IMG/VR virus record: IMGVR_UViG_3300045988_094522
Direction: 5' to 3' (one strand)
Length of the DNA stretch: 45,880 nt
Source: a virus
Part shown: piece by piece, positions 1,945 to 41,597 of the stretch
How positions within the stretch are numbered: position 1 is the first letter of the stretch
Layout: each line of letters begins with the position of its first letter
Translations under genes and position numbers: made by a program
The notes under the pieces: model-generated
What the model was told of the DNA's origin: nothing
What the model saw: the letters and a program-made list of their open reading frames with translations, nothing else
Database searches by the model: none

Positions 1945-1955
1945 GAGTATGTCAA
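1927..1955 (-). promoter_or_regulatory. Leftward repressor promoter (PRM-like), overlapping PR face to face
   Basis: On the minus strand: TTGACA (1955-1950), 17-nt spacer, TTTACT (1932-1927). Confidence 0.45.
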
Positions 1956-2122
1956 CAAGAGTTGTTTACAAAAAGGCAAAAGAATAACGCCCCTCTGGGA
2001 TATATTTTTTGCCCGGAGAGTTCTCAATGGTTTATGAGTGTGGTAGCTTCATTATAACCTTTGGGGAGTCCTCTGTCAACTATTGTTTACAAGAATACTC
2101 AAAGGAAGGAGGTACATGAGAC

Positions 2123-2514: not shown

Positions 2515-3061
2515 GTCTGACGTTGATACTTTCCGGGTTGGAGATATTATCAAGTTCAAACTGACAGACGGCGAAAAGGTACAGGCAATGGCGGTACAGC
2601 AGGAAAATGACGGTATGCTGTTCTGTCTGGTGGACTGCTTGGCTGACGAGTATTCCATGAACGATACGAACACCAATGAGGGCGGCTATGAGGGCAGTGA
2701 CCTCAGAAAGAAGCTGAACACTGAGATTATTGCCCGCTTCCCTGCCGACATTAAGGCTATGATGGTTCCTTTCGGAAATGGAGATTATCTCCGTCTGCCA
2801 ACTGAAAAAGAGATTTTCGGTGAGAACTACTATGGCGAGTACGAGAGTCCGTATGTGCAGCAGTGGAAGCCTATGAAGCAGAGACGGAACCGCATTGCAT
2901 TTCAGGGTAAGAATGGTGGCTGGGAATGGTACTGGCTCCAGAATAAGTGTAGAGACTCCGCTGCTCACTTTGCCAGTGTCGACGACACCGGCGGTGCGGG
3001 CTACGGCGGCGCTTCTTACTCTTATGGCGTTCGTCCCGCTTTCAAAATCAGGGTTCTTTAA
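2492..3061 (+). CDS. Remote DGR target protein 2: stand-alone ligand-binding-type domain (DUF6273/C-type-lectin-like) with C-terminal VR2
   Basis: ATG 2492 lies 8 nt after GGAGG. 189 aa with no signal peptide. Motifs DLRKKLN, LPTEKEIFG, WYWLQN and C-terminal GVRPAF. The C-terminus is paralogous to the tail-fibre-like gene 39968-40852 and matches the TR. Confidence 0.8.
   Translation: MKVKRMIKSDVDTFRVGDIIKFKLTDGEKVQAMAVQQENDGMLFCLVDCLADEYSMNDTNTNEGGYEGSDLRKKLNTEIIARFPADIKAMMVPFGNGDYLRLPTEKEIFGENYYGEYESPYVQQWKPMKQRRNRIAFQGKNGGWEWYWLQNKCRDSAAHFASVDDTGGAGYGGASYSYGVRPAFKIRVL
2954..3043 (+). repeat. DGR variable region VR2
   Basis: Gap-free 90-bp alignment to TR 41443-41532. 18 mismatches fall at TR adenines. 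One T-to-C mismatch lies at the third base of the 5' edge. Confidence 0.85.
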
Positions 3062-3062
3062 T

Positions 3063-3085
3063 CTACACCCCCTTGTGGGGTGTAG
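3063..3085 (+). promoter_or_regulatory. GC hairpin downstream of VR2 (candidate DGR target-recognition cruciform, possibly also a terminator)
   Basis: ctacacccc / cttgt / ggggtgtag: 9-bp stem and 5-nt loop, preceded by ttaatcta. Same architecture and loop as 40861-40883. Confidence 0.65.
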
Positions 3086-3097
3086 GGGAGGTACTAC

Positions 3098-3505
3098 ATG
3101 AAGCGAGTGAACAAAACAATAGGAAATCAGTTTGAAGAAGAACTCTGTAGACTTCTGGCTGAACATGGATGGTGGGCGCACAATATGGCGCAGAACCAGA
3201 CAGGGCAGCCCGCAGATGTGATAGCGGTCAAAAATGGTATTCCCGTACTGATTGACTGCAAGGACTGTGCCAATAACATTTTCACCCTGTCTCGTATTGA
3301 AGCGAACCAGGAAGGGGCTATGACCCGCTGGGAAGCTACAGGGAATGAGCATTGTTACTTTGCTATGCGGCTGAATACAGGGCAGATTTACATGGTGCAT
3401 TTTGATGAACTTTGCCTGCGGGAGTTGTACGGCGAAGGGAGCATTACCGAAAAAGAGTTTCCAGAGTTCAAGACCTTCAAACAGTGGGTGGAGGAATTTG
3501 AATGA
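3098..3505 (+). CDS. Holliday-junction resolvase-like PD-(D/E)xK nuclease (RecU/Hjc-like)
   Basis: 135 aa with GNQFEEELCRLLAEHGWW...QPADVIAVKNGIPVLIDCK, the D...(D/E)xK pattern. Confidence 0.6.
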   Translation: MKRVNKTIGNQFEEELCRLLAEHGWWAHNMAQNQTGQPADVIAVKNGIPVLIDCKDCANNIFTLSRIEANQEGAMTRWEATGNEHCYFAMRLNTGQIYMVHFDELCLRELYGEGSITEKEFPEFKTFKQWVEEFE

Positions 3506-4890
3506 TAACGGAAATCGGAAGCCGTTTGAAAATCACTGACCCTTCCCCGGAACTGGTTGCCTGGTGCAAGAAAAATCTGGAAATGCCGAACCCAGAGTAT
3601 CAGAAGAAAGCAAGGATGAATTTGTGGCTGGGAAATACGCCCAGAACTCTCATTTTATATGAGATAGAGGGCAACGCTATAATCCTTCCTTTCGGCTGTC
3701 TGAGGGGTATCCTGCCGCTTTTGGAAGGGGAGGTAGTGAAATACTTCCCTGAGAAAAGAAACGTCAAATACGGCGGCTCTGTGCCGTTATACGACTATCA
3801 GGAAGAAGCTGTAGGAGCCATGCTGATAAATCATTACGGTATCTTGCAATCTCCCGCTGGAAGCGGAAAAACGCAGATGGGAATTGCTCTTGCCAGTGAT
3901 TTAGGTGTAAGGACGCTTTGGCTGACCCATACGAAAGACCTTCTAACCCAGAGTAAGAACAGGGCTGAACAATACTTCTCTCCTGACCTCATGGGAACCA
4001 TTACAGAGGGAAAAGTCAATATCGGGACAGCTATGACGTTTGCCACGATACAGACCATGTGCAAATTGGATTTGGAACAATACCGTGATACCTGGGACTG
4101 TATTATCGTGGATGAATGTCACAGAGTAAGCGGAACGCCTACGGCAGTCACGCAGTTCTCAAGGGTTCTGAACGCTCTCAGGGCAAGGCACAAATACGGA
4201 CTATCCGCTACGGTACATAGGGCTGACGGATTGATAAAGGCAACCTACGCAATGCTTGGGGAAGTGGTTTATACCGTTCCTGATGAAGCTGTGAAGTCAA
4301 AGATAATGACAGTTCATGTGCAGCCGAAAGGGACAGGGGTAAAACTCAGTTCAGATTTTTTAAACAGTGACGGCACTATCAATTATCCGAAGATGATTAC
4401 TTATCTGACTGAGAATGAGGAACGGAATGAGATTATCATGGATGACCTTTTGGAAAACTGTGACCATTACAACCTTATCCTCTCAGACAGAGTTGACCAC
4501 CTGAGAAGCCTGTATGAAAGTTTGCCACTGGCACTGAAAGTTCGGGCGGCGGTAATTGATGGGAAAATGACTACCAAAAAGCTGAAAGCAGAACGGGAAC
4601 AGGCACTTGAAGATATGCGCTCCGGAAAGAAGCATTACCTGTTTGCCACTTATGCTTTGGCAAAGGAAGGGTTGGATATTCCCCGGCTGGATAGGCTCTA
4701 TCTGACCACGCCACAAAAGGATTATGCAGTCATAGTCCAGAGTGTGGGACGAATTGCCAGAACCTTTGACGGGAAGGAACAACCCATTGCATACGACTAT
4801 GTAGACTACATACGGTCATTGCAGAAATCCTTCAAGAAACGCTGCACGAGTTATCGTAAGTGCGGTTGCGTGATATTGGAGGGTGAATGA
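3502..4890 (+). CDS. SF2 DEAD/DEAH-box DNA helicase
   Basis: Walker A SPAGSGKTQ, motif II IIVDECHR, and C-terminal helicase motifs (FATYALAKEGLDIP, QSVGRIAR). Confidence 0.85.
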   Translation: MITEIGSRLKITDPSPELVAWCKKNLEMPNPEYQKKARMNLWLGNTPRTLILYEIEGNAIILPFGCLRGILPLLEGEVVKYFPEKRNVKYGGSVPLYDYQEEAVGAMLINHYGILQSPAGSGKTQMGIALASDLGVRTLWLTHTKDLLTQSKNRAEQYFSPDLMGTITEGKVNIGTAMTFATIQTMCKLDLEQYRDTWDCIIVDECHRVSGTPTAVTQFSRVLNALRARHKYGLSATVHRADGLIKATYAMLGEVVYTVPDEAVKSKIMTVHVQPKGTGVKLSSDFLNSDGTINYPKMITYLTENEERNEIIMDDLLENCDHYNLILSDRVDHLRSLYESLPLALKVRAAVIDGKMTTKKLKAEREQALEDMRSGKKHYLFATYALAKEGLDIPRLDRLYLTTPQKDYAVIVQSVGRIARTFDGKEQPIAYDYVDYIRSLQKSFKKRCTSYRKCGCVILEGE

Positions 4891-6755
4891 TGGAAAATGA
4901 CATTTTTATCTTTGACTGTGAGGTGTTCGCTCACGATTGGCTGTTCGTTTTCAAAGAGATAGCCACTGGGGAATACACAGTTATCCATAATGACAATGAC
5001 GCTGTAGTTGCTTTCATGGAGCGCAACCCGTTCCTGGGAGGATTTAACAACAAGCACTATGACAATTTCATTTTAAAAGGGGTGATGTGCGGGCTTACTC
5101 CCGAACAGATTAAGGAAATCAATGACCTTATCATTGTGGAGGAAGTCAACGGATGGGATATACCCGTTCTCAGAGAGTACAGAGTATACTTTGACAGCTT
5201 TGACCTTATGGACGATTGCCAGGTTGGGTTGTCTCTTAAAGCGATTGAAGCCCACCTGGGAATACCGATTGAGGAAACTGAGGTTGACTTCAATATCACT
5301 CATAGGCTCTCAGAGAAAGAATTGCAGGAAACCATTTACTACTGCAAATATGACGTGGACGCTACTGAGAAGCTGTATCACCTGCGGCAAGCGTATCTGA
5401 AAAACAAAGTCACTCTGGGTAAAGCGAGAAACCTGACAGATAGACAGGCAATGTATATGACCAATGCAAAACTGACTTCTGTTTATCTGAAAGCGCAAAA
5501 GCCTGAAAAGCCCTGGAATGACGAAAGGAACTATCAATACCCGGAAAAGCTGTTACGGCAGTATATCCCTCAAGAGGTGTTTGACTTCTTTGACCGCATG
5601 AAAGATGACTGCATACCCAATGATGAACTGTTCAGTAGCAAGCTGGAAATTATGGTAGGTGTTTGCCCCTGCACTATCGCTTATGGTGGTATTCACGGCG
5701 CAATTCCTACCTATGTGGAAGAAGCCACTGAAACACGCACAATTCGCAACAAAGACGTGGCAAGCTACTATCCGCACTTGATGACCCTTATGGGTTATTG
5801 CAGCCGTAATATGCCGTCTCCGAAGATGTTTGAGGACACACTGGAAGAAAGAGTTGCCGCTAAAAAGGCAGGCGATAAAGCCACTGCAAACGCTTTGAAG
5901 TTGGTTCTTAACACAACATACGGAGCCATGCTGAACGGTAAGGATGGAACAGCGTTTAATGACCTGTATGACCCCCTGATGGGACGTTCCGTGTGCATAT
6001 CTGGGCAGCTTTTCCTCTTGGAACTTTCCGAACACCTGATTGCTGAGTGTCCTACTTTGAAAATCATTCAGCTTAACACAGATGGTATCATGGTGAGTTT
6101 TGACCATGAGGATGAAGCAAAATATCAGGAAATCACCCAGGAATGGCAGGACAGAACAGGTTTTGAACTGGAAGAAGATTTTATTCGCAAGATTGTTCAG
6201 AAGGACGTAAACAACTATGTGGAAGTCCCGGCTGACGGCGGGGAGCCGAAGGTCAAAGGTGGACAGCTTGTGCGGGGGATTGCTCCTGCGGGAGCCTTTA
6301 ATATCAACAATAATGCTGTGGTAGTCGCAAGGGCGATAAAGCAGTATTTCATTGACGGTACTCCCCCGGAGGAAACCATTGCGGCAAGTGAGAACATTCT
6401 GGATTTTCAGCTTATCGCAAAGGCGGGAGGTAAGTATTCTCAGTGCTATCACCTGGTAGGCGGGGAAAAAGTGATTGTTCAAAAGGTGAACCGTGTTTAT
6501 GCAGTATCAGACAAAAGCAAAGGGACAGTCTATAAAACCCACGCTGTTACAGGTAGAGACGCTAAAGTGGCTGGACTTCCCACGCATTGTGCCATTGACA
6601 ATAACAACAATCTCTCCATAGAGGTAGTTGACCGAAAGTGGTATGTCAAATTGGCAAAGAAGTATATCAATGATTTTTTGGGCATTAAGCCGCCCAGAAA
6701 AAATACCAGACGGATTAACTCACTCAAAAAGAAATCTTTAGCATTATTCGATTAA
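4887..6755 (+). CDS. DNA polymerase, family-B-like, with N-terminal 3'-5' exonuclease
   Basis: Exonuclease motifs FDCEV, NNKHYDNFIL and YCKYDVDAT. Polymerase motifs DVASYYPHLM (DxxSLYPS-like), KLVLNTTYGAM (KxxxNSxYG-like) and LNTDGIMV (DTD-like). Confidence 0.75.
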   Translation: MMENDIFIFDCEVFAHDWLFVFKEIATGEYTVIHNDNDAVVAFMERNPFLGGFNNKHYDNFILKGVMCGLTPEQIKEINDLIIVEEVNGWDIPVLREYRVYFDSFDLMDDCQVGLSLKAIEAHLGIPIEETEVDFNITHRLSEKELQETIYYCKYDVDATEKLYHLRQAYLKNKVTLGKARNLTDRQAMYMTNAKLTSVYLKAQKPEKPWNDERNYQYPEKLLRQYIPQEVFDFFDRMKDDCIPNDELFSSKLEIMVGVCPCTIAYGGIHGAIPTYVEEATETRTIRNKDVASYYPHLMTLMGYCSRNMPSPKMFEDTLEERVAAKKAGDKATANALKLVLNTTYGAMLNGKDGTAFNDLYDPLMGRSVCISGQLFLLELSEHLIAECPTLKIIQLNTDGIMVSFDHEDEAKYQEITQEWQDRTGFELEEDFIRKIVQKDVNNYVEVPADGGEPKVKGGQLVRGIAPAGAFNINNNAVVVARAIKQYFIDGTPPEETIAASENILDFQLIAKAGGKYSQCYHLVGGEKVIVQKVNRVYAVSDKSKGTVYKTHAVTGRDAKVAGLPTHCAIDNNNNLSIEVVDRKWYVKLAKKYINDFLGIKPPRKNTRRINSLKKKSLALFD

Positions 6756-6768
6756 GGAGGATAAGACT

Positions 6769-7269
6769 ATGAAGTTTACAGAAGTAGCACCCATGATGGA
6801 AAAGGGAGCAAAAATCAAGTTAAAGCAGTGGAAAAATGCTTATTGGTATCTGGACAACAAAGGTTGTCTTATTAACCACTTTGAGGAAGGTGAAGAAATT
6901 CCTGCGGCTGACTTATTTCCTTACACCTTGGCATGGGGACTTTGTAATGACTGGGAGATTGTGCAGGAGCCGAAGGTAGAAAAAATTCACTCCTTTGGTT
7001 ACGCCCTTTCTGCTCTCAAGAACGGTAAGAAGGTTGCCCGCAAGGGTTGGAACGGCAAGGGAATGTTTCTTGTGCTTTGCCCTGGTAATAAGGTTCCCGC
7101 TGACCACATGAAGGTCAAGGAAGTCAAGAAATTCTACCAGAACGAGAAACAGGACACGGTTACTATCAATCCGCACATTGATATGAAAGCTGCTGACGGT
7201 ACATACGTTACAGGTTGGCTTGCTTCTCAGACTGATATGCTGGCTGATGACTGGTATGTGGTTGAGTAA
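6769..7269 (+). CDS. DUF2829 (Tad2/MW1434-like) protein, apparently two tandem domain copies
   Basis: The C-terminal half has the family hallmark ALKNGKKVARKGWNGKGMFL...IDMKAADGTYVTGWLASQTDMLADDWYVVE. The N-terminal half is a degenerate copy (MEKGAKIKLKQWKNAYW...NDWEIV). Confidence 0.65.
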   Translation: MKFTEVAPMMEKGAKIKLKQWKNAYWYLDNKGCLINHFEEGEEIPAADLFPYTLAWGLCNDWEIVQEPKVEKIHSFGYALSALKNGKKVARKGWNGKGMFLVLCPGNKVPADHMKVKEVKKFYQNEKQDTVTINPHIDMKAADGTYVTGWLASQTDMLADDWYVVE

Positions 7270-17660: not shown

Positions 17661-17852
17661 ATGTTTGATGAACAGGCATGGGATAACAATGAATGGATTG
17701 AAAGCAATCTGGTACAGGAACATTTTAACCTAACCTTTGGTGAATGTTTCAAGCGGTTTGAGTTTTGCAGAACAGCAGAATGGAACAAGTACCCGCTGGA
17801 AGGGCAGAAAATAACCACTTATTTCAGAAAGGGGGTGAAAAGTAATGGCTGA
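17661..17852 (+). CDS. Hypothetical small protein
   Basis: In-frame ATG 17661 after GAGAGG. 63 aa. Confidence 0.4.
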   Translation: MFDEQAWDNNEWIESNLVQEHFNLTFGECFKRFEFCRTAEWNKYPLEGQKITTYFRKGVKSNG

Positions 17853-19323
17853 TGAATTGTTTCAGCTTTCTAATGGGCGATATATCACGTCTGAGGAAAT
17901 CAGTAAAAAGATGTTTTACATAAAGTCCATTCACCCGGAAACCCCTTATCAGGAAAATTCTACAGGGTATTCATGGGATGAAGCAGGTATGGCAGACCTT
18001 TTCTCTGAATGTTACCAGAATGACACCCGTTACTGCCCGGAAGCTAAATCATGGTATACCTATGATGGCGGCAGATGGCAGAAAGACGTTGGTTCTTTGC
18101 TGGTATCTTCAAAGATTAAAGAGTTTGTGCGGCTTATGGCACTGTACTGCGGAGAAATCCCTGACGAAGAAAAGCGCAAGCAATATATGGGCTTTGTGTC
18201 TAAGATGGGTGACAGGCGGTTTCGTGACCGTATGATGAAGGACGCCGCTGACAGCATGACGATTGCCGCCGCTGAGTTTGATACTCACCCGTATCTGATT
18301 AACTGTAAGAATGGCACTTATGACCTTGAGACTATGACTTTCCGGGAGCATGACTGGAAAGACTTTCTGACAATGCAGACTAACTTTGATTATACTATGC
18401 AGGAAGTCACCTGCTCCAGATGGGAACAGTTCATAAAGGAAGTCACTCAGGATAATAAAGATAAAGCAGATTACTTGCAGCGGGCTTTGGGCTATTCTAT
18501 TCTGGGAACGGGTAAAGAGGAATGTATGTTCATCCTTCATGGCAAGACCACCCGCAACGGCAAGTCAACTATGCTGGACGCTATTCAACACCTGCTGGGC
18601 GATTACTCTACCGTGGCTCCTGTGGAACTTATCTGCCGCAATGAGAGACAGAAGAACGCCGAAGCTGCAAACCCTGTGCTTGCCCGGTTAAAGGGAAAAA
18701 GAATGGTTACTATGTCAGAGTCCGACACGGCGGGCAAGCTGGATGAAGCCACTATAAAGCAGTATACAGGTGGTGAGGATATTACCGCCCGTGAACTGTA
18801 TCAGAGTGCAATTACATTCAAGCCCCAGTTTACCATGTGGCTCTCTTGTAATGACCTGCCCGCAGTAAAGGACAAAAGCCTGTTTGCTTCTGACCGTGTG
18901 AGAGTCATTGAGTTCAACCGCCACTTCTCAGACGAAGAACAGGACAAGGGTTTGAAGGATTACTTTGAAACGCCCGAAGCTATGAAGGGTATCTTCACCT
19001 GGCTGGTGGCTGGGTATTTTAAATATCGCCGCTTTGGTTTGAAAATGTGTGACGATATGAAGAAAGTTATCAAGCAGTATGAGAAGGACAATGACCTGGT
19101 TCTGCAATTCCTTGAAGAAAAGTGTGAGGGTGCAGACGAAGGTTATACGAAAGCCAAAACGCTGTATGATAACTATAAAATCTGGTGTAAAAGCAACGGG
19201 TATTATGTTTGCAGCATGAAGAAATTCAATGCAGAACTGACAACGCACCCGGAATGGTATCACGAAAAAAGTCTTATTGCAGGGGTTACAGTATATCATG
19301 GGTTGGCTTTGAAAGCAGTTTAG
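17845..19323 (+). CDS. P4/D5-family primase-associated SF3 DNA helicase
   Basis: D5_N-like YLINCKNGTYDLET and Walker A LHGKTTRNGKSTMLD, then ITARELYQ and a C-terminal winged-helix-like tail. Confidence 0.85.
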   Translation: MADELFQLSNGRYITSEEISKKMFYIKSIHPETPYQENSTGYSWDEAGMADLFSECYQNDTRYCPEAKSWYTYDGGRWQKDVGSLLVSSKIKEFVRLMALYCGEIPDEEKRKQYMGFVSKMGDRRFRDRMMKDAADSMTIAAAEFDTHPYLINCKNGTYDLETMTFREHDWKDFLTMQTNFDYTMQEVTCSRWEQFIKEVTQDNKDKADYLQRALGYSILGTGKEECMFILHGKTTRNGKSTMLDAIQHLLGDYSTVAPVELICRNERQKNAEAANPVLARLKGKRMVTMSESDTAGKLDEATIKQYTGGEDITARELYQSAITFKPQFTMWLSCNDLPAVKDKSLFASDRVRVIEFNRHFSDEEQDKGLKDYFETPEAMKGIFTWLVAGYFKYRRFGLKMCDDMKKVIKQYEKDNDLVLQFLEEKCEGADEGYTKAKTLYDNYKIWCKSNGYYVCSMKKFNAELTTHPEWYHEKSLIAGVTVYHGLALKAV

Positions 19324-19409
19324 TAGAGTATTTTCGCTTTTTCCTATAAGTTTTCTTAGTATGCGCGTATATAGAAGAAGTTATAGTAAAATACGATTTT
19401 ACTCTACAA
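19321..19409. repeat. ~90-bp AT-rich quasi-palindromic element, copy E1
   Basis: Bounded by tagtagag...ctctacaa. Contains tatagtaaaat-acg-attttactcta (11-bp arms, 1 mismatch). Positions 19339-19409 match the reverse complement of 22764-22834 at 56/71 positions without gaps. Confidence 0.75.
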
Positions 19410-19505
19410 CCCTGTAGCCCAGGAAGGAGTTTATCATGGAAAGCTACGTTGAAAGATGGAAACGAGAGAAAGAGGAAGCCCGGTATAGGAAGGATGTGAG
19501 CAACA

Positions 19506-20165
19506 ATGGCAGAAAACGAAAAGCCCGTAAAGATGGGGAGACCGAAGGGCAGCAAAGACAGAAAGCCCAGACGGACAGAGGGGTACAAAGAAAGCAGTCC
19601 GAAGAACTTAGAGAAAGCGAGAAGTAATTCCCCCATTATGCAGGGACAGAAGGGAGAAATGCCGAAGGGGTATAATGCGAAGATGGTTAGTTTCATTTTG
19701 GCTATTACCCCAAAGGAGCCGCTTGACTATAGTGACGTGGACGAGATGGAGAGACGGTTCTATAATTATCTGGAAATGTGCGCTGCATGGGATATGAAGG
19801 TAGGAAACCAGGCGGCGTATACTGCTATAGGTATTACTAAAGAACAAGCGTGGGAATGGGAGAATGTGACGAAGGGGAACCCTCGCCGCACTGACTTTAT
19901 CAAAAAAGTTCGTCAAATTTGCGGGCTTTATAGAGAGGGTTTAATGCAGGACGGCAAGATAAACCCCGTCACTGGTATTTTCTGGCAGAAGAATTATGAC
20001 GGTATGAAAGACCAGTCCGAAGTGGTTCTCACGCCTAACAATCCTCTGGGAGACAGTAAAGACACGGAAGCCTTAAAGCAGAAGTATCTTGAAGCCGCCG
20101 ATATAGTAGAGGTATCGGACGAGACAGAGACGGCAGAGATTATAGAAACTCCTGCCGAAGATTGA
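19506..20165 (+). CDS. terS: Terminase small subunit
   Basis: N-terminal GRPKGSKDRKP, then ERRFYNYLEMCAAWDMKVGNQAAYTAIGITKEQAWEW (HTH-like) and NPVTGIFWQKNYDGMKDQ. This is the typical TerS pattern. No clear SD at this ATG. Confidence 0.65.
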   Translation: MAENEKPVKMGRPKGSKDRKPRRTEGYKESSPKNLEKARSNSPIMQGQKGEMPKGYNAKMVSFILAITPKEPLDYSDVDEMERRFYNYLEMCAAWDMKVGNQAAYTAIGITKEQAWEWENVTKGNPRRTDFIKKVRQICGLYREGLMQDGKINPVTGIFWQKNYDGMKDQSEVVLTPNNPLGDSKDTEALKQKYLEAADIVEVSDETETAEIIETPAED

Positions 20166-20171
20166 GCCGCC

Positions 20172-20308
20172 GTATAGAGAGGTTTCACCAAAATATTTTG
20201 GCGCAGTATAGGCGGCTGTCTGAAAATTCAAATCGCCAGTATAGCGTGTCTGTCCTCTTTATCAGCCCTGTAATTAAAGCGGCTCTGTGGAACGTGTGGA
20301 GCGTATAG
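20172..20308. repeat. Phased GTATAG repeats (4 exact copies, 1 degenerate) in the terS/ftsK-like convergent spacer
   Basis: GTATAG at 20172, 20206, 20239 and 20303 (spacings 34, 33, 64), each preceded by GC-rich bases (gccgcc, ggcgca, tcgcca, ggagc). A degenerate gtaatt at 20270 fills the double gap. Confidence 0.7.
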
Positions 20309-20322
20309 AGGGCAAAAAGAAA

Positions 20323-20353
20323 CCCCGGCGGGCTTGTGTGCCTGTCGGGGCTT
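20323..20353 (-). terminator. Rho-independent-type terminator after the FtsK-like gene; copy A of a 31-bp exact direct repeat
   Basis: Minus strand: aagccccgacaggcacacaagcccgccgggg followed by tttcttttt. Identical 31-mer at 21119-21149. Confidence 0.55.
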
Positions 20354-20358
20354 TTCTG

Positions 20359-21093
20359 TTATAACCATCTTAAACGGGGCTTTTTCTGCCGTCTCCAATA
20401 GTCTAACATTTCTTTTACTTTATCGGGGCTGTACATGGGTATATTATACAGTTGCAAGCCTGCGGGGGTCATATAATATCCTTTGCCATATCTGGGCAGC
20501 AGTTCGCAACCTTTAACGCCTAAAATGTTGCGGCTGTCCTGGGCGCAACGGGTACGCAAGGCAACCCGGCTATCAAAGTTTACTTTTATAGGAGTAGGGA
20601 TGACAGAGGAAAGCGGGCATTGCGTGGCGGCTATAATATGGACGTTTGCCGCCCTGCCTACTTGTGCAAGCCGTTGTAAAACGGGCTGCACCTGGCGGCG
20701 AGCGGTGGTCATTAAATCGGCTAATTCATCAATGATAATATAGACTGCCCCGCCGTCATAGTTTTTTATATGGCGGGCTTGCATGGCTTTATAGCGGCGT
20801 TCTGTTATTTCCATAGCATAATTTAACGCTTGCACCATTTCCCCCGGTTCACTGGAATATTTGAGCGTATGCGGTAACGGTTTATAGTCTATCAATTCAA
20901 CCCGTTTCGGGTCTATCAAGATAAATTGCACTTGTGCGGGGCTTTTAAATAAAGCTGTGTACATTATGCCATTGATAACAACGCTTTTACCGCTGCCCGT
21001 TGCGCCTGCTACTAATAAATGGGGTTGTTGTAACATATCGTTGTAAAGGTCATATACTGCACCCGCTGGCGTTGTCCAGGTCTTTTTTAACAT
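20359..21093 (-). CDS. FtsK/SpoIIIE-family ATPase, motor domain only
   Basis: The second ATG (21093) lies 7 nt after GGAGGT. Walker A LLVAGATGSGKSV, Walker B VYIIIDELADL, IIAATQCP, and DSRVALRTRCAQDSRNILG. No TM or gamma domain. Confidence 0.8.
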   Translation of the reverse strand: MLKKTWTTPAGAVYDLYNDMLQQPHLLVAGATGSGKSVVINGIMYTALFKSPAQVQFILIDPKRVELIDYKPLPHTLKYSSEPGEMVQALNYAMEITERRYKAMQARHIKNYDGGAVYIIIDELADLMTTARRQVQPVLQRLAQVGRAANVHIIAATQCPLSSVIPTPIKVNFDSRVALRTRCAQDSRNILGVKGCELLPRYGKGYYMTPAGLQLYNIPMYSPDKVKEMLDYWRRQKKPRLRWL

Positions 21094-21118
21094 TCTTTTA
21101 ACCTCCATTCTGAGAAAA

Positions 21119-21149
21119 GCCCCGGCGGGCTTGTGTGCCTGTCGGGGCT
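21119..21149 (-). terminator. Copy B of the 31-bp repeat / hairpin between ORF 21160-21498 and the FtsK-like gene
   Basis: Same 31-mer, followed on the minus strand by cttttctcag and then the RBS of the FtsK-like gene. Confidence 0.45.
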
Positions 21150-21159
21150 TGCCTGTGGG

Positions 21160-21498
21160 CTACTGTCCTATATAGCTATAATCGTATTCTTGAACGGTTC
21201 CCAGGGTTTCCGCTGTGGGCTTTTCACCTGTGAAACGGTCTACAGTTCTAACAGGGATATAAAACGCTGTACGGTTCCTTTTTCCTCTCAAATTGTAGTA
21301 TTCAAACGAGTTTACAGCTTCTTCAAAGCTGGCGGCGGCTTTTCCGCTTATGCTTATTTCTGGATGATATGGAAAGCCGGGGCGCAAGTTTGAAGGACAG
21401 AGGACAACCCGCAAGCCGTTGCTGTACGCTTTCCGGGCTGTGGTTTTAGTGATACGGACGAACAACCGCCCGCCGTCTGTGTAGGTGTATTCTTTCAT
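21160..21498 (-). CDS. Hypothetical protein (112 aa)
   Basis: GGAGG RBS. Member of the reverse-strand operon. Confidence 0.55.
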   Translation of the reverse strand: MKEYTYTDGGRLFVRITKTTARKAYSNGLRVVLCPSNLRPGFPYHPEISISGKAAASFEEAVNSFEYYNLRGKRNRTAFYIPVRTVDRFTGEKPTAETLGTVQEYDYSYIGQ

Positions 21499-21647
21499 GG
21501 TTTAACCTCCTGTATTTGTGCATTTTGTCAATGTGCTATTAACTGGCATTGCTGCGGGTTTGAAATCCCACTTTTTCCAGACCTCCCAGGGCTTGCACCC
21601 TGGGAACGCTTGCGCCCTAACTGGCTATTTATACCCGGCGCAACGGG

Positions 21648-22025
21648 TTAAAATGCTATGTTTGAAAGTCTGCGGGCTGCCTGTTTTAAAGCTCTTGCTT
21701 GTACGTCTAACCATTCTTCCCGGCTGTTAGGTCTGCGCTGCCCTTCATTGCTGCGCTTGTATTCAGACGGACAACAAAGACGCTTTGCAATGTCTCCATC
21801 ATAGATAAGAGAAGAACCACCGTAGCTGTAGGACTCCCAGGAGTCAGCACCATTTAACAACCATTCTTTAAACTCTTTGCAGTCTGCGGCTTCCCTTCCC
21901 TCATACTGCACCCGCTCTTGATACTCTTCTAATAATTCCAGGGCGTACAGTGTAACGCCTTTATTCCATGCGCTGCGGTCTTTTCTGGTTTCTAATCTGT
22001 TTTTAATTTCATTGTAGTTTGTCAT
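21648..22025 (-). CDS. Hypothetical protein (125 aa)
   Basis: The ORF has an RBS. SAWNKGVTLYALELLEEY motif of unknown function. Reverse-strand operon. Confidence 0.55.
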   Translation of the reverse strand: MTNYNEIKNRLETRKDRSAWNKGVTLYALELLEEYQERVQYEGREAADCKEFKEWLLNGADSWESYSYGGSSLIYDGDIAKRLCCPSEYKRSNEGQRRPNSREEWLDVQARALKQAARRLSNIAF

Positions 22026-22052
22026 ATCCTTTTACCTCTTTTCTTTTTTTGG

Positions 22053-22274
22053 TTATTCTTCTACAATAGGTTTACAAGGTGTAGTTGCTATATTGATTTC
22101 GTAAGTATCGGAATTTAAAGCCCTGAATGTATCAACCTTAAATTTTCCATAGGCTTCTAAGTGAAAAGGGTTGTTAATATCAAGTGTGGTGTTAAAATCT
22201 TCCCCATAACCTACAGTAATTTTAATTTGTAAATCTTCCTTGTAAATCATGCTTACAAGCTGTTTTACATTCAT
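22053..22274 (-). CDS. Hypothetical protein (73 aa), first gene of the reverse-strand operon
   Basis: AAAGGAG RBS. Preceded by a consensus-like promoter. Confidence 0.5.
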   Translation of the reverse strand: MNVKQLVSMIYKEDLQIKITVGYGEDFNTTLDINNPFHLEAYGKFKVDTFRALNSDTYEINIATTPCKPIVEE

Positions 22275-22305
22275 GCTCTCAGCTCCTTTCTTTTATCTTG
22301 TAAAC

Positions 22306-22334
22306 ATGATAACACGTTTAAATGATATTGTCAA
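22306..22334 (-). promoter_or_regulatory. Promoter of the reverse-strand accessory operon
   Basis: Minus strand: TTGACA (22334-22329), 17 nt, TATCAT (22311-22306). The -35 is bracketed by the inverted repeat aacacgttt (22311-22319) / aaacgtgtt (22341-22349). Confidence 0.6.
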
Positions 22335-22365
22335 GCGTGAAAACGTGTTTTTGAGATATTTTTTC

Positions 22366-22456
22366 GTCTGGCTGGCTCTCGTACCGGGTGGAACCCTGGC
22401 GGCTGCACCCCCTGCGGGGGAAATCGACCCCCGCCGAGCCGAGCCGGGTGAGGGTC
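22366..22456. other. GC-rich structured spacer between the divergent island promoters
   Basis: About 90 bp far more GC-rich than its surroundings. The G5 run at 22416-22420 can pair with C5 at 22408-22412 or with C5 at 22428-22432 (7-bp stem gcggggg/cccccgc, loop aaatcga). Outer pairing ggctggctc / gagccgagcc. Tandem ccgag-ccgag. Confidence 0.5.
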
Positions 22457-22483
22457 AAAAATACCGCAAAAATAAAAAAGTTA

Positions 22484-22512
22484 TTGACTTAACCGTGTTA
22501 TTGCGATATAAT
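22484..22512 (+). promoter_or_regulatory. Consensus sigma70-type promoter of the island HTH gene
   Basis: TTGACT (22484-22489), 17 nt, TATAAT (22507-22512). Confidence 0.7.
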
Positions 22513-22536
22513 GTAAACACGATAAGGAGGATTGCT

Positions 22537-22755
22537 ATGAAAGCTAATGATATTGTCAAAAATTTAATGAAAGAAAGAAACTTGACTCAGGGGGAACTTA
22601 CCAAAATCATGGGTAAAACGAGTCAATCTGCAATCAGTGGAGCATTAAACAGGGATATGAAAATATCTACATTGGTATCCTTTCTTGACGCTCTGAATTG
22701 CACTTTGGTTATCAAGGATAAAAACGGAAATGAGTGGACGGTTGAAAATGAATAA
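22537..22755 (+). CDS. XRE-family HTH transcriptional regulator (72 aa)
   Basis: ATG follows AAGGAGG. LTQGELTKIMGKTSQSAISGALNRDMKISTLVSFLDAL. Confidence 0.75.
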   Translation: MKANDIVKNLMKERNLTQGELTKIMGKTSQSAISGALNRDMKISTLVSFLDALNCTLVIKDKNGNEWTVENE

Positions 22756-22763
22756 GCAAAGTA

Positions 22764-22853
22764 TTGTAGAGTAAAATCAAGTTTTACTATAAGTTTATAT
22801 AGATATACGACTACTAAGAGAAGTCATAGGAAAATCATTGATTTGCTCTACAA
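22764..22853. repeat. ~90-bp AT-rich quasi-palindromic element, copy E2 (inverted relative to E1)
   Basis: Bounded by ttgtagag...ctctacaa. Contains tagagtaaaa-tcaag-ttttactata. Confidence 0.75.
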
Positions 22854-22891
22854 GTCTACAGGTTGAAATACTGATTAAGGAGGTATAACCA

Positions 22892-23497
22892 ATGGATGAA
22901 TTAAGTTTCAAATTTCAGGAAACTGCTGTAAGAACCCTGTTAATAGAACGTGAACCGTGGTTTGTAGGAAAAGACGTGGCAGAAGCATTACACCATAGCA
23001 ACCCTGAAAGGGCGGTTCGTAATTTTGTAGATGATGAAGATAAAGGAGTGACCGTTTTAGTCACCCCTGGTGGAACTCAACAAGTTACGATTATTAACGA
23101 ACCGGGAGTATATTCTTTAATCTTGCAAAGTAAGACAGAAACGGCTAAGAAGTTTAAACATTGGGTAACACATAATGTCTTGCCGTCTATTCGCAAGCAA
23201 GGTTATTATTCTGTTCTATCTGATGAAGAATTGATTGAAGCACTTACCCAAAAGCTGCAAGACAATCCAAAGTTCTTGAAATACACTGACGGACTTACCC
23301 CGGCACAAAAGAAGGACGCTAACAAATTAAGACGAGAAGCCGATTATCAGGAGTTACGCAAAAACTGGAAAGATATGGAGCCACGGGAAGTGACACAAAA
23401 ATTGAGTGATATTTTCTTTGATGACCCCAGACGGTTTGAACGGGAGAACAACAAATTCATCTACTGGTATAACCACAACAAAATTTCCAGATTTTAA
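22892..23497 (+). CDS. BRO-N domain protein (antirepressor-like)
   Basis: FQETAVRTLLIEREPWFVGKDVAEALHHSNPERAVRNFVDDEDKG...INEPGVYSLILQSKTETAKKFKHWVTHNVLPSIRKQG. Confidence 0.75.
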   Translation: MDELSFKFQETAVRTLLIEREPWFVGKDVAEALHHSNPERAVRNFVDDEDKGVTVLVTPGGTQQVTIINEPGVYSLILQSKTETAKKFKHWVTHNVLPSIRKQGYYSVLSDEELIEALTQKLQDNPKFLKYTDGLTPAQKKDANKLRREADYQELRKNWKDMEPREVTQKLSDIFFDDPRRFERENNKFIYWYNHNKISRF

Positions 23498-23509
23498 GGA
23501 GAGTGTACA

Positions 23510-23992
23510 ATGAAGCGGTTTACAATGATTTTATTATCTTTTGTGTTGTTGTTCAGTTTGACAGCTTGCGGTTCGTCTGAACCAGCAGTGGAGGTGACTG
23601 CGGAAAGTGCAGTTACGGCATTGCAAGAGAAGATACCTGATATAACAAGTATCACGGTATATGACGAGGAAACCGACCCGAATGAAAATTTAGGGAGACC
23701 GGGACAATATATCGGTAAAGCAGACTTCTTTGATAGCCGCATGGAGTATGAAGAAGATAATGCCGGGACAATCGAGTTTTTCTCGTCTAAATCAGATTGT
23801 GATGACAGATACGAATATTTGTGCAAACTCTCTGACCCAGAGTTGGGAGCATTTGGTGTAAACCAATATATTTATAAATACGACCTTGCCGTGTTCAGAG
23901 TTAGTTATGATTTGACTCCTTCTCAAGCAGAAGAATATAAGCAAGCTATGGATGAGATTATGGGTGAGGTTTCCGAACAATACGAAGGATAA
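23510..23992 (+). CDS. Lipoprotein of unknown function
   Basis: MKRFTMILLSFVLLFSLTAC: signal peptide plus lipobox. Confidence 0.7.
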   Translation: MKRFTMILLSFVLLFSLTACGSSEPAVEVTAESAVTALQEKIPDITSITVYDEETDPNENLGRPGQYIGKADFFDSRMEYEEDNAGTIEFFSSKSDCDDRYEYLCKLSDPELGAFGVNQYIYKYDLAVFRVSYDLTPSQAEEYKQAMDEIMGEVSEQYEG

Positions 23993-24034
23993 TTTTATAA
24001 CAAACCCTGAGTGGAGACTGAGGGTTGTCCAATG

Positions 24035-24065
24035 GGACTGTCTGATGACAGTCCTTATTTTTTTT
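24035..24065 (+). terminator. Rho-independent terminator closing the accessory island
   Basis: ggactgtc-tgat-gacagtcc followed by ttatttttttt. Confidence 0.75.
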
Positions 24066-24078
24066 GCAGGAGGATATT

Positions 24079-25746
24079 ATGGAATACAAGAAAATCAAAA
24101 CACAGATTGAAAATGCTGTGCGAAAGTCCCCTTCTGACCCAGTGCCGTATGAGGATATGTTTTCCCTCTGCCGGGATATGGAGAAGGAAGATTTTGCAAA
24201 GGCTCATAAATGGAACCAGGCTTTTAGAAAGAAAATATCTGCTGCCATTCGTCTGTCTGTAACGGACGGGGATATGCTGGCGGCTGAACAGTTCGACAAT
24301 CTTTTGTTCCGCTCTCTACTTTTTGGTGCGCCGCATTTCTTTGATGATTACTTGCAGGCAGTGGAGTTTGGCAAGCCGCTTGATAAGAAGTTCTATCAGC
24401 CCCGCCGTCATTACCTGAAACGGTATGTAGACGCATATCAGGAAGTGCTTGAGGGGAAGCTGGACTTTCTCTCTATCTCCATGCCGAAACGTGCGGGTAA
24501 GTCTCAGTTAGGTATCAACTTTACCAATATGCTTTCCGGGAAATTTCCTGACCGCTCTACCCTGATGGAAGGTACAGGTGATGACCTTGTGAAGTCGTTC
24601 TATTTGGGTTGCCTGGAATATATGACCACCCCCAGTGACTATCACTTTTATGATATTTTCCCTGAGAGTAAGTTGGTGCAGACAAACGCAGATACGAAGA
24701 TTATTAACTTGCTCCATAAATCCCGTTTCCCCACGGTAATGTGCCGTTCCATTGACGCAAGGCAGGTAGGTCTTTCCGAAGCAACGAACCTGCTTTATCT
24801 GGATGACTGTGTAGAGGGACGTGAGGAAGCAAAGAACAGACAGCGGCTTGATGATAAATGGGAGGTTATTTCTGGTGACGTTATCGGACGTGCAATCGAA
24901 GGAACACCCATTGTGATTTGCGGTACACGGTATTCTCTGTATGACCCTATCGGGCGGTTACAAGAGGAAATGCGTAAGCAGGGTAAGCGAATGAAGATTA
25001 TCGAAACCCCGGCTCTTGACCTTGTGACGGATGAAAGCAACTTTGAGTATGTGCGTGAGGGAAGGAAAGTTTTCACCACGCAGTATTTCCGTGACCAGAG
25101 AGAAATGCTTTCGGCTGAACAGTTTGAGTCTGAATTTCAGCAGCAACCTTTTGAAGCGAAGGGCTTACTTTTCCCGGAAGCCAGTTTGAACCGTTTCTTT
25201 GAACTTCCGATTGACCGTGACCCTGACAGTATCATTGCGGTCTGCGATACTGCGGATAAAGGTGAGGATTATTGCGCTATGCCGATTGCGGCGGTCTATG
25301 GGGATGAAGTGTATATCATTGACGTGGTGTTTGATGACTCTCCCCCAGAGGTGACGAAGCCAGAATGTGCAAAGGCTCTGATGGATAACAAGGTGGTTGC
25401 CTGTACCTTTGAGTCCAATAATGCGGGTTCGTACTTTGCAAGGGACGTGCAGGATATTATGACGAAGCGGGAGTACGTCTGCAATGTGAGAACGAAAAGG
25501 ACTATCAGCAACAAGCAGACAAGAATTGAGTTTGCTTCTGATACCATCCTGAAAAACTTTTATTTTAAAGACCCGTCTCTTTACGCGAGGAACAGTCAGT
25601 ATGCAGCTTTCATTAAGCAGGTAATTACATACACCCGCTCTGGTAAAGTGCCGCATGATGACGCTCCTGACTCCCTTTCTCTGCTGGAAAATGAACTCAG
25701 GGGGCTTGTCGGCGCAAAGGTTGAGGTGTTTAAGCGTCCTTGCTAA
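24079..25746 (+). CDS. terL: Terminase large subunit
   Basis: ATG follows AGGAGG. Walker A-like ISMPKRAGKSQLG, LLYLDDCVEG, and the nuclease region AVCDTADKGEDYCAM...FESNNAG...PHDDAPDS. Confidence 0.85.
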   Translation: MEYKKIKTQIENAVRKSPSDPVPYEDMFSLCRDMEKEDFAKAHKWNQAFRKKISAAIRLSVTDGDMLAAEQFDNLLFRSLLFGAPHFFDDYLQAVEFGKPLDKKFYQPRRHYLKRYVDAYQEVLEGKLDFLSISMPKRAGKSQLGINFTNMLSGKFPDRSTLMEGTGDDLVKSFYLGCLEYMTTPSDYHFYDIFPESKLVQTNADTKIINLLHKSRFPTVMCRSIDARQVGLSEATNLLYLDDCVEGREEAKNRQRLDDKWEVISGDVIGRAIEGTPIVICGTRYSLYDPIGRLQEEMRKQGKRMKIIETPALDLVTDESNFEYVREGRKVFTTQYFRDQREMLSAEQFESEFQQQPFEAKGLLFPEASLNRFFELPIDRDPDSIIAVCDTADKGEDYCAMPIAAVYGDEVYIIDVVFDDSPPEVTKPECAKALMDNKVVACTFESNNAGSYFARDVQDIMTKREYVCNVRTKRTISNKQTRIEFASDTILKNFYFKDPSLYARNSQYAAFIKQVITYTRSGKVPHDDAPDSLSLLENELRGLVGAKVEVFKRPC

Positions 25747-25844
25747 TCCCTCAATGGTTATCTAAAATTTTTCCTTGAAATGAGCATTGGAGGATGATAT
25801 ACTCATGTTAGAAGATATTTTGTGCAGTGAGGGAGGTGATTAAC

Positions 25845-27320
25845 GTGGGTATGGTACTGCATGGAAGAATGATGATTACGACTGACGAAACAGAAGTAAC
25901 CATGAACAATGTGCTTACTATCCTGCAAAAAGCACTTCCTTATCACTGGAAAAACCGCTCTGAGATTGATTATCTCTATTGGTATTACAAGGGCATACAG
26001 CCCATTCTCAACCGCCAGAAAGAAGTAAGACCTGAAATCTGCAATCATATAGTGGAGAACCGGGCGAATGAGATTGTCTCTTTTAAATCGGGCTATCTGA
26101 TGGGAGAACCGCTACAGTATGTCTCTCGTGGTAACGGTGATAATCTGGCAGAAGCAATCAATCAGCTTAATGAGTTTGTTTTTGCAGAAGAAAAGCCTGC
26201 AAAGGATAAGGAGTTGGCTGACTGGTTTCATATCTGCGGAACTTCCTTCCGAATGGTTCTGCCTGATGAAGCGGGTGAGGAAGATGATGCTCCGTTTGAG
26301 ATTTACACCCTTGACCCCAGAAACGCTTTTGTGGTGTATCATAACGGGCTGGGGAATAAACCCATTCTGGGTGTGAAATATGTGGTGGACGAAAACGGGC
26401 TGGTGCATTACAGTTGTTATTCCGACCACGAGTATTTTGAAATCGTGGACACTCAGATTGTCGCACATGATACGCACATTCTGGGGGATATTCCGATTAT
26501 CGAATATCCGTTGAATATTGCCCGTATCGGCGCATTTGAGTTGGTCATTCCCCTGTTGGACGCTATCAACCTGACAGACAGTAACAGACTGGATGGGGTT
26601 GAGCAGTTTGTCCAGGCTCTTATGCTTTTCCATAACGTGGATATTTCCTCTGAGGATTATCAAAAGTTGCGTGAGGAAGGGGCAATTAAGTTCCGGGATA
26701 TTGACCCGCAGATGAAAGCGGAGATTGACTACCTGATTAGCAATCTGAACCAGAGTGAAACGCAAACTCTGGTAGACCATATGTATCAGACAGTGCTTAC
26801 CATTTGCGGTATGCCGAACCGTAACGGCGGTTCTTCTACGAGTGATACAGGTTCCGCAGTTATCATGCGTGATGGCTGGTCTGCTGCCGAAGCAAGGGCG
26901 AAGGACAGTGAACTCATGTTTAAAAAGTCTGAGAGGATTTTCCTCAGACTGATTTTGAACATTTGCCATACGCTGGTAGATATGGATTTGAAGGTCTGCA
27001 ACATTGAAATCCGTTTTACCAGGCGTAACTACGAGAACATTTACCAAAAGGCACAGGTGCTTGACCTCATGCTCAAGAATGAGAAAATTCATCCACGCCT
27101 TGCCTTTGAACACTGCGGCTTGTTTGTTGACTCTGATTTGGCTTACACATTGAGTGTGGAATATGCCGAAGAACAGGAAAAGAAAGCCCAGGAGTTATTT
27201 GAGAAACAGCAAGCTATGAAAGAGGGAGGTAATGAAGATGACCCCAGTGATAACGAAGGAAATGGTGGAACAGATGGAAACACTGCTCAAACACGGGAGC
27301 AGGGTGGAAATACTGATTGA
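25845..27320 (+). CDS. Portal protein (SPP1 gp6-like)
   Basis: GTG 25845 lies 8 nt after GGGAGG (start uncertain; ATG 25851 is an alternative). YWYYKGIQPILNRQKEVRPEICNHIVENRANEIVSFKSGYLMGEP. Follows terL. Confidence 0.8.
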   Translation: MGMVLHGRMMITTDETEVTMNNVLTILQKALPYHWKNRSEIDYLYWYYKGIQPILNRQKEVRPEICNHIVENRANEIVSFKSGYLMGEPLQYVSRGNGDNLAEAINQLNEFVFAEEKPAKDKELADWFHICGTSFRMVLPDEAGEEDDAPFEIYTLDPRNAFVVYHNGLGNKPILGVKYVVDENGLVHYSCYSDHEYFEIVDTQIVAHDTHILGDIPIIEYPLNIARIGAFELVIPLLDAINLTDSNRLDGVEQFVQALMLFHNVDISSEDYQKLREEGAIKFRDIDPQMKAEIDYLISNLNQSETQTLVDHMYQTVLTICGMPNRNGGSSTSDTGSAVIMRDGWSAAEARAKDSELMFKKSERIFLRLILNICHTLVDMDLKVCNIEIRFTRRNYENIYQKAQVLDLMLKNEKIHPRLAFEHCGLFVDSDLAYTLSVEYAEEQEKKAQELFEKQQAMKEGGNEDDPSDNEGNGGTDGNTAQTREQGGNTD

Positions 27321-27375
27321 GCAGGGTAAGGTAGCCATTGTAGAAGTCAAACGAAAGCTGAAAATGAAGGAGTAA
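27238..27375 (+). CDS. Possible small ORF overlapping the portal 3' end
   Basis: GAGGGAGG lies upstream. MTPVITKEMVEQMETLLKHGSRVEILIEQGKVAIVEVKRKLKMKE. Confidence 0.25.
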   Translation: MTPVITKEMVEQMETLLKHGSRVEILIEQGKVAIVEVKRKLKMKE

Positions 27376-27406
27376 CGCCGGGGCAACGGCTCTGGTGAGT
27401 CCAATG

Positions 27407-41532: not shown

Positions 41533-41597
41533 GATACTGTGATTAAATAGGCATTTGACCGTTTCACAGTGAGAGAAAGGAGAGATTGTCCTTCCGT

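Follow-up and report, generated by a model that had tools for sequence, protein, structure and literature searches.

Predicted self-cleaving ribozymes at the junctions of exchangeable gene cassettes beside an FtsK-like ATPase gene in a clade of gut phages

Introduction

What separates the small and large terminase genes, terS and terL, in the virus record IMGVR_UViG_3300045988_094522, and how are the reverse-strand genes that lie between them organized? We addressed this question in the 45,880-nucleotide (nt) stretch of DNA held under that IMG/VR record, which we refer to as the window and whose positions are used throughout. An earlier sequence-only reading had described the interval as an autonomous, moron-like island carrying a four-gene operon, in which three small proteins accompany a motor-only FtsK-like ATPase. 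Its genes, promoters and terminators were all confirmed by our open reading frame (ORF) map and signal scan, and terS and terL are indeed parted by genes on the reverse strand, which are served by a promoter of their own and the last of which encodes a motor-only FtsK homologue. The interpretation as a recent island is partly supported. What makes the locus interesting is an element absent from that reading, a pistol self-cleaving ribozyme at the junction of two of the small genes. We are highly confident of the architecture and of the ribozyme identity described below. That the ribozymes process the transcript, and that their junctions mediate gene exchange, we regard as probable, and a role of the encoded proteins in phage-host or phage-phage conflict is put forward tentatively.

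Results

A pistol ribozyme abuts the stop codon of a small gene

In the ORF map, the reverse-strand set reads leftward through three small genes, p73 (73 amino acids, 22053-22274), p125 (125 amino acids, 21648-22025) and p112 (112 amino acids, 21160-21498), to the FtsK-like gene, all on the minus strand. Between p125 and p112, on the same strand, we found a pistol ribozyme (Rfam RF02679; 21577-21648). It covers all of the model (positions 1-68 of 68) and scores 56.6 bits, the gathering score being 34.5 (E = 8.5e-8 for the whole window), and its first base is also the final base of the p125 stop codon. The element appears to be a new member of this known family. The Rfam scan of the window found neither a twister nor a hammerhead-II ribozyme.

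Across 30 distinct pistol sequences, 97.4% of the cells in helices P1, P2 and P3 were paired and 15 of the 17 pairs showed compensatory changes, in an alignment that was fitted to the model and thereby biased somewhat in its favour. None of 500 shuffles reached the observed values, and slid partners paired at 29-55%. By inspection of an alignment, the P1 loop and the internal loop form a pseudoknot in which GCGCC pairs with GGCGC, and in other members the two sides covary to GCGGC with GCCGC. A G-U cleavage step precedes the 3′ strand of P2 in 8 of 10 aligned pistols, the window's included, and places the predicted cut between 21582 and 21581. From the position of this step, nearly the whole ribozyme would remain on the upstream p73-p125 fragment. 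The p112 fragment would begin with five ribozyme nucleotides, followed by a conserved 78-nt spacer (21499-21576, minus strand) that carries the p112 ribosome-binding site and would serve as the 5′ leader of the downstream product. Spacers of 76-78 nt recur among relatives.

A second feature of the transcript lies just ahead of the FtsK ribosome-binding site, where a 40-nt GC-rich terminator-like hairpin (21117-21156, minus strand) is followed by CUUUUCU. This hairpin forms a direct repeat (D1; 93% identity) with a bidirectional terminator hairpin (20320-20359), found by a terminator scan on both strands, that is common to terS and the FtsK-like gene. The genes and promoter of the four-gene operon stand as first described; given the pistol and the hairpin before FtsK, the set is probably not expressed as one intact mRNA. 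Many relatives carry a twister ribozyme where the window has the hairpin at 21117-21156, and other loci without a twister have a comparable GC-rich hairpin and short U-tract ahead of FtsK. We considered whether the window's hairpin is a degenerate twister and rejected this, as neither an Rfam nor an R2 model matched it.

Three predicted ribozyme classes occupy cassette junctions in related loci

We next counted ribozymes in the window and 80 related loci, using covariance models built from the initial Rfam hits. The loci were taken from 310 IMG/VR relatives of the FtsK-like protein. Together they gave 46 matches to pistol, 29 to twister and 6 to hammerhead-II, and all 81 lay on the FtsK strand, upstream of FtsK and at cassette junctions. 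At least one ribozyme was found in 56 of the 75 loci with at least 1 kb of upstream sequence, and two or three in 18. Twisters in relatives were of type P1, with a covarying P1, and scored 50-59 bits (E = 1e-8 to 1e-11), under the gathering score of 67.2. Hammerhead-II ribozymes in relatives scored 47-49 bits, above their gathering score of 37, or 36 bits, just under it. One hammerhead-II (locus L068, 3167-3235) has CCGAUGA instead of the core CUGAUGA and may be an inactive or variant copy.

The positions of these ribozymes relative to genes were strict. In 38 of 44 cases, which span four unrelated gene families, the 5′ end of the pistol fell between -2 and +4 nt from the stop codon ahead of it. 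The 3′ end of the twister lay 24-33 nt ahead of the next start codon, most often that of FtsK, in 22 of 27. A pistol cleaves near its own 3′ end and a type-P1 twister near its own 5′ end; at these positions the folded ribozyme would therefore stay on the adjacent ORF as a terminal structure. In 11 loci a cassette lies between a pistol and a twister. We also asked whether the gaps of ribozyme-less loci hide a new RNA motif, a candidate that was rejected, since these gaps contain additional small ORFs with ribosome-binding sites and a hairpin before FtsK.

Unrelated genes alternate between conserved joints

Comparison of the loci revealed a layout with two or three cassette slots. Slot 1 holds p125, or a gene of family F3, or the pair F7 and F5. 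Junction 1 is usually a pistol at the upstream stop codon. Slot 2 holds p112, F12, F35, F10 (with or without F13), F26, or nothing, and junction 2 is a twister in many lineages and a GC-rich hairpin with a short U-tract in others, the window's included. The FtsK-like gene ends the operon. Occupancy by p73, p125 and p112 is patchy, p73 being present in only 4 of the loci. The possibility that slot alternatives are diverged homologues was rejected by hhalign, which found the cassette families mutually unrelated (probability <4%).

Closely related phages show how cassettes are replaced. In L003, which is 99.8% identical elsewhere, the sole difference from the window is at 21150-21499, where the p112 ORF is exchanged for an unrelated gene; the swap is bounded by the hairpin (21117-21156), which holds the left breakpoint, and by the p112 ribosome-binding site. 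In L001 and L002, a 154-nt block of pistol and spacer (21500-21653) is 99.4% identical to that of the window and the flanking genes differ on both sides. A single pistol sequence, identical at each occurrence, follows F5, p125 or F3 and precedes F35, p112 or no gene at all. Identical pistols between unrelated genes thus mark the ribozyme junction as the conserved joint of shuffled modules. These comparisons do not bear out the view that the small proteins are fixed partners of the ATPase, since they behave as cassettes that can be replaced by unrelated ones, or be missing, even in near-identical phages. In a separate group, a prophage of Mediterraneibacter faecis type (L241) and three metagenome contigs (L242-L244) are alike over this part of the genome and have a 114-amino-acid and a 49-amino-acid gene, respectively, in slot 2, apparently a further natural cassette swap beside the same pistol.

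We then searched for the identity of the cassette proteins. None of p73, p125 and p112 matched a characterised family in Pfam, PHROGs, PADLOC, NCBIfam or PDB sequences, and the alternative cassette families gave nothing significant in family or PDB-sequence searches. An AlphaFold2 model of p112 (predicted local distance difference test score, pLDDT, 82) had no PDB fold neighbour in Foldseek, and its matches in BFVD were only uncharacterised phage proteins; the model of p125 was poor (pLDDT 62), below use for a fold search. The earlier description of three small proteins of no known function is upheld by these family, PDB-sequence and Foldseek searches, which also gave no match to the conjugation or housekeeping families that it had weighed as an alternative. 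One p125-like sequence matched the Thoeris inhibitor Tad3 (E = 0.03), a candidate that was dropped as 0 of 24 family members reproduced it. Proteins of family F3 (~135 amino acids; for example L004 7056-7445 and L007 7019-7411) have a median net charge of about -26 and an isoelectric point of 4.05. In this acidity they resemble DNA-mimic anti-restriction proteins, yet their sequences match neither ArdA, nor Ocr, nor any Pfam family.

The FtsK-like ATPase is a conserved fixture between terS and terL

The FtsK-like ORF spans 20359-21108 on the minus strand, and a start at 21093 gives a protein of 244 amino acids, in agreement with homologue lengths of 242-244. The protein matches PF01580 (E = 1.1e-33; 117 bits against a cutoff of 24). 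Its best PDB match is the Pseudomonas aeruginosa FtsK motor 2iut (E = 5.8e-37), over chain residues 207-468, which form the beta, RecA-like domain. The sequence-only reading had assigned it neither a transmembrane segment nor a gamma domain. The 2iut alignment gives no match in the gamma region, which bears out the second point, and the first follows from protein length and the start of that alignment, by which a transmembrane segment and an alpha domain would both be missing. We therefore describe the protein as a predicted beta-domain-only homologue and not a bona fide FtsK. In 66 distinct sequences the motifs GATGSGKS, DELAD and GRA are invariant, as are the T and Q of ATQ, and the ATPase appears catalytically intact.

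Among relatives the FtsK-like protein is 63-99% identical. In the 80 FtsK-seeded loci, the primase gene is followed by terS, the FtsK gene, which is convergent with terS, a stretch of variable content, terL and portal; the starts of terL and FtsK were 1.7-3.9 kb apart in all 58 loci that reach terL. IMG/VR gave 470 matches to terL. Relatives chosen instead by terL (77-100% identical, with at least 3.5 kb upstream of terL; n = 47) served as a second sample, and in 46 of them the FtsK gene lies between terS and terL. With both samples in agreement, the gene is a conserved fixture of the clade, not part of a recent island. In this synteny comparison, the choice between an island and a conserved core thus falls to the core as far as FtsK is concerned: the moron-like character first proposed holds for the BRO-N, lipoprotein and small cassette genes described here, and fails for the FtsK gene and the gap as a whole.

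The sole exception, L160, lacks an FtsK gene and still has a terS-terL gap of 5.5 kb filled with other genes. Within this gap (1456-7001) lie an XRE-like gene, a lipoprotein gene and a gene for a 394-amino-acid protein, by eye a possible homing endonuclease; no ribozyme was detected there.

We also compared the ATPase with other translocases. The locus does not show the membrane anchor, adjacent relaxase and further transfer genes expected of a conjugative coupling protein (Tn916 Orf21, TcpA or TraB type). The only matches were weak ones to TraB (E = 5.5e-6; 25 bits, where the cutoff is 800) and to the coupling protein 6o1x (E = 1.4e-7), and no transfer family matched among the ten proteins scanned, primase through terL. 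The search for defence systems that had been suggested for this locus was answered in part: PADLOC matched the ATPase domain (SspH, 5e-28; mad8, 4e-23) and no full system, neither SspFGH together with SspBCDE nor a mad1 to mad8 set, with no further PADLOC match among the 10 proteins scanned. PHROGs places the family in the category 'moron, auxiliary metabolic gene and host takeover'. Cellular FtsK genes of species-representative genomes were 34-46% identical to the phage protein among the matches listed.

The operon is typical of an abundant clade of temperate Lachnospiraceae phages

Megablast of positions 17800-27400 against deposited phage genomes gave no match, and in tblastn of the FtsK-like protein against the same phages every match was below 60% identity (388 records; those listed, 36-43%). 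By these searches, no deposited phage genome belongs to the window's clade. In metagenomes, two protein families of the locus comprise 5865 and 4477 homologue clusters, the latter for p125, and some clusters have thousands of members; one of the p125 clusters includes Mediterraneibacter faecis. The p125 homologue of this species lies on a 168-kb contig (GCA_052148975.1), in a prophage whose operon is the same and in which a pistol again adjoins the stop codon. The operon is typical of a temperate Lachnospiraceae phage clade, which is common and very abundant in the gut.

Neighbouring genes and regulatory sites

The window is a phage genome. Its gene order begins with repressor-like, helicase, DNA polymerase, Erf, exonuclease, methyltransferase, NrdDG and D5-type primase genes, and continues with terS, the reverse-strand set, terL, portal, major capsid protein, tail genes, reverse transcriptase and endolysin. 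The reverse transcriptase gene (41586-42797, plus strand; phrog_1423, 2.4e-53), between the tail genes and endolysin, may be part of a diversity-generating retroelement.

The terS-like gene (19506-20165, plus strand), convergent with the FtsK-like gene, has a sole and weak match (phrog_606, 2e-6), and in relatives it stands beside FtsK with 41-99% identity. A 63-amino-acid ORF with a good ribosome-binding site (19436-19627, plus strand) overlaps the 5′ end of terS in a different frame, and the terS start is uncertain because of it. On the other side of the interval, terL (24079-25746, plus strand; phrog_38, 3e-47; PF22530) directly follows an intrinsic terminator (24034-24065, plus strand) with a 9-bp stem (stem 24034-24055) and then a T-run.

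Three further plus-strand genes precede this terminator. A gene for an XRE-type helix-turn-helix regulator (22537-22755; PF01381, weak; phrog_1373, 8e-8) is divergent from the operon, and an XRE homologue of 33-61% identity occupies the equivalent position in many relatives. A BRO-N/Ant-like protein (22892-23497; PF02498, 3.6e-25; phrog_130, 4e-45) and an acidic lipoprotein (23510-23992), the latter recognised by a signal peptide followed by Cys and by a weak lipo_LytA match, are variable morons, the BRO-N gene being one of low GC content; among the 80 FtsK-seeded loci their homologues occur jointly only in the near-identical L003 and L004. GC content falls locally to 36-40% over 22000-23500, which would fit separate acquisition of the XRE/BRO-N part.

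Two promoters, each with 11 of 12 consensus matches, face away from each other in this region: the leftward operon promoter TTGACA-17-TATCAT, with an upstream TG (22334-22306, minus strand), and the divergent XRE promoter TTGACT-17-TATAAT (22484-22512, plus strand). An exact 14-nt sequence, AATGATATTGTCAA, occurs at 22321-22334, overlapping the -35 element of the operon promoter, and again at 22546-22559, within the XRE coding sequence, and may be an operator. A conserved block (22407-22480) adjoins the XRE -35 on its upstream side; made up of an A/T tract, CTCACCCGCCC and a G5/C5 hairpin, it is present in 59 of 81 sources. As a structured RNA this block was rejected, with no covariation and no Rfam match at E up to 5. 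Lacking covariation, it is probably a regulatory site at the DNA level.

Upstream of terS is an imperfect palindrome of ~90 nt (19317-19409; RNA fold -28.8 kcal/mol, z = -5.2), of which a degenerate second copy lies upstream of BRO-N (22760-22853). Part of the spacer upstream of terS is likewise duplicated inside the terL-FtsK interval in 23 of 45 relatives. The duplicated palindrome or spacer may be a late-promoter or regulator site, and we suggest that such a second site would be needed because the reverse operon breaks up the late genes.

Discussion

The explanation that we favour, and that we consider somewhat better than even when its firmer and weaker parts are blended, begins at the near-consensus sigma-70 promoter (22334-22306), back to back with the XRE gene, which would drive leftward transcription through the cassettes. 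The primary transcript is predicted to cleave itself at 21582/21581, giving two products: an upstream p73-p125 mRNA whose 3′ end would be the folded pistol, and a second RNA, from the downstream side, that would carry p112 behind a 5′-hydroxyl (5′-OH) leader. The terminator-like hairpin, or the twister in other lineages, would further uncouple FtsK. With the transcript cut and the hairpin in place, we infer that the stability and translation of each cassette would be independent of its neighbours. At the DNA level, the conserved ribozyme and spacer junctions would furnish homology for cassette swapping. The weakest step is the proposal that the variable small proteins are arms-race genes, acting in counter-defence or exclusion, and that DNA is what the FtsK-like hexameric motor works on in this conflict. 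Possible hints of such a role are the acidity of F3, the precedent of ardA, and the FtsK-like ATPases of Ssp and MADS systems. In its fullest form, the ribozyme and spacer units would be plug-and-play joints that serve both as RNA insulators, with pistol capping the upstream 3′ end and twister the downstream 5′ end, and as DNA homology for shuffling conflict genes before an FtsK-like motor; we advance this as one possibility, with considerable reserve.

Several observations weigh against this explanation. The 5′-OH product of the glmS ribozyme in Firmicutes can be targeted by RNase J1 and degraded (PMC6765202), and cleavage may therefore lower downstream expression rather than insulate it. In 19 of the 75 loci no ribozyme was detected and the genes are tightly packed, so the ribozymes are not obligatory. 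The FtsK-like protein has no evident physical or functional tie to the cassettes, no small protein matches a known defence or anti-defence family, and no integrase was seen in the window.

How far do other explanations account for the same locus? If the whole 3.9-kb block were a recently acquired, autonomous island of the moron or defence type, whose FtsK-like ATPase acts together with three dedicated partners, one would understand its own promoters and terminators, the low GC content over 22000-23500, the restriction of the BRO-N and lipoprotein genes to the closest relatives, and the resemblance of the ATPase domain to the defence ATPases SspH and mad8. Yet 46 of 47 relatives, with terL identities as low as 77%, have the FtsK gene at one constant location, the small genes are exchanged, unrelated or missing even between near-identical phages, and the 10 scanned proteins include no other Ssp or MADS component; synteny thus appears to have largely refuted an island of this kind, which we consider very unlikely. 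Somewhat less improbable, although still unlikely, is that the FtsK-like protein is a host-takeover factor that, as a host translocase reduced to its beta domain, disturbs or replaces host FtsK/SpoIIIE in division, segregation or sporulation, and that the cassettes are unrelated morons sharing its promoter. Among solved structures its nearest relative is the motor of a genuine cellular FtsK (5.8e-37), and cellular FtsK genes have 34-46% identity among the matches listed. The protein lacks the alpha, gamma and membrane parts on which FtsK normally depends, and PHROGs files the family under host takeover; a pure poison subunit, however, would have no need of invariant Walker B, arginine and sensor residues.

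Another scheme starts from the position of the operon directly beside terS. Were the operon to adjoin the packaging start and enter the cell first, it could supply immediate-early counter-defence and a soluble pump that pulls in the genome in the two-step manner of T5 and phi29. The near-consensus sigma-70 promoter, for which no phage factor is required, and the inclusion of a very acidic, DNA-mimic-like family among the variable small genes suit this idea, but lambda-type cos phages bring the terS end in last, the FtsK gene sits behind a terminator-like hairpin, and the scheme is built by inference only; we judge it highly improbable. The ribozymes could also act outside gene expression, as selfish or neutral passengers or as a source of RNAs with 5′-OH and 2′,3′-cyclic-phosphate ends that are ligated to circles. 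Cassettes running from a pistol to a twister, as in 11 loci, would bear exactly the ends used by an RtcB-type ligase, and 19 of 75 loci do without ribozymes. On the other hand, Perreault et al. (2011) sought spliced or circular products of clustered hammerheads and found none (PMC3088659), and the strict stop and start positioning, the coding-strand location of all 81 ribozymes and the compensatory changes suggest that selection has acted on them as parts of an mRNA. We give little credence to passengers or circles as the explanation.

The explanation by RNA processing and cassette exchange has precedents. In prophages, hammerheads flank individual, non-constant genes, ardA among them (Perreault et al., 2011; PMC3088659), and several ribozyme classes cluster near non-constant short phage genes, with hammerhead and twister sharing contexts (PMC3088659, PMC5737381, PMC6765202). 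As far as PMC6765202 relates it, these shared contexts led to the pistol, hatchet and twister-sister ribozymes (Weinberg et al., 2015), and the same source states that the reason for the shared gene neighbourhoods of hammerhead and twister has 'not yet been determined' (PMC6765202). Our locus resembles the published prophage clusters in having several classes, interchangeable by position, on the coding strand between short non-constant phage genes, and in polycistronic RNA processing as the proposed role. It differs from them in its fixed site between terS and terL, its conserved FtsK-like terminal gene, divergent XRE gene and two or three slots, and in the placement of pistols at stop codons and twisters 24-33 nt before starts, with identical ribozymes joining different cassettes. 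We did not find this operon layout, the stop and start rules, the FtsK-like anchor between terS and terL or identical ribozymes as joints in the accessible literature, and nothing in the full texts searched pairs ribozymes with FtsK, which may already figure among the associated genes listed by Weinberg 2015 and Roth 2014.

A parallel also exists in engineered systems. Synthetic ribozyme insulators such as RiboJ were reportedly introduced by Lou et al. in 2012. In both RiboJ and the present locus a self-cleaving ribozyme stands between parts, where it strips, or in our locus would strip, upstream RNA context so that the parts behave independently; RiboJ was engineered to this end, whereas in the natural locus insulation is a property that we infer.

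The terminal protein likewise has known relatives from which it differs. With the P. aeruginosa FtsK motor (2iut/2iuu) it shares the RecA-like beta domain and the Walker A, Walker B, arginine and sensor glutamine motifs. Unlike FtsK/SpoIIIE, it has only 244 amino acids and, judged by its length and alignment, no membrane anchor, nor does it have a linker, an alpha domain or a gamma domain, which reads the FtsK-orienting polar sequences (KOPS). It is phage-encoded and, relative to 2iut, ~37 residues are deleted inside the beta domain. Proteins annotated 'FtsK-like DNA translocase' in Bacillus phages and cluster J mycobacteriophages are also phage-encoded and carry an FtsK domain (388 records), but are less than 60% identical, those listed being 36-43%. 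The SspFGH and MADS systems have an FtsK-like ATPase domain in SspH and mad8; SspH, however, exceeds 1500 amino acids, and no other component lies near the window's gene among the 10 proteins scanned.

For the study of bacterial self-cleaving ribozymes, the locus offers a tractable system in which to ask what they do. The clade is abundant and has a named, sequenced host in M. faecis, the layout is fixed, three ribozyme classes sit at defined junctions, and natural near-isogenic variants differ in one cassette. The analysis also flags a conserved and apparently catalytically intact beta-domain-only FtsK homologue as a core gene of these phages, and the ribozyme-bounded slots are a place to seek new counter-defence or exclusion genes. 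If the ribozyme and spacer units do act as plug-and-play joints, they would provide the first functional reason for the association of several ribozyme classes with particular phage genes.

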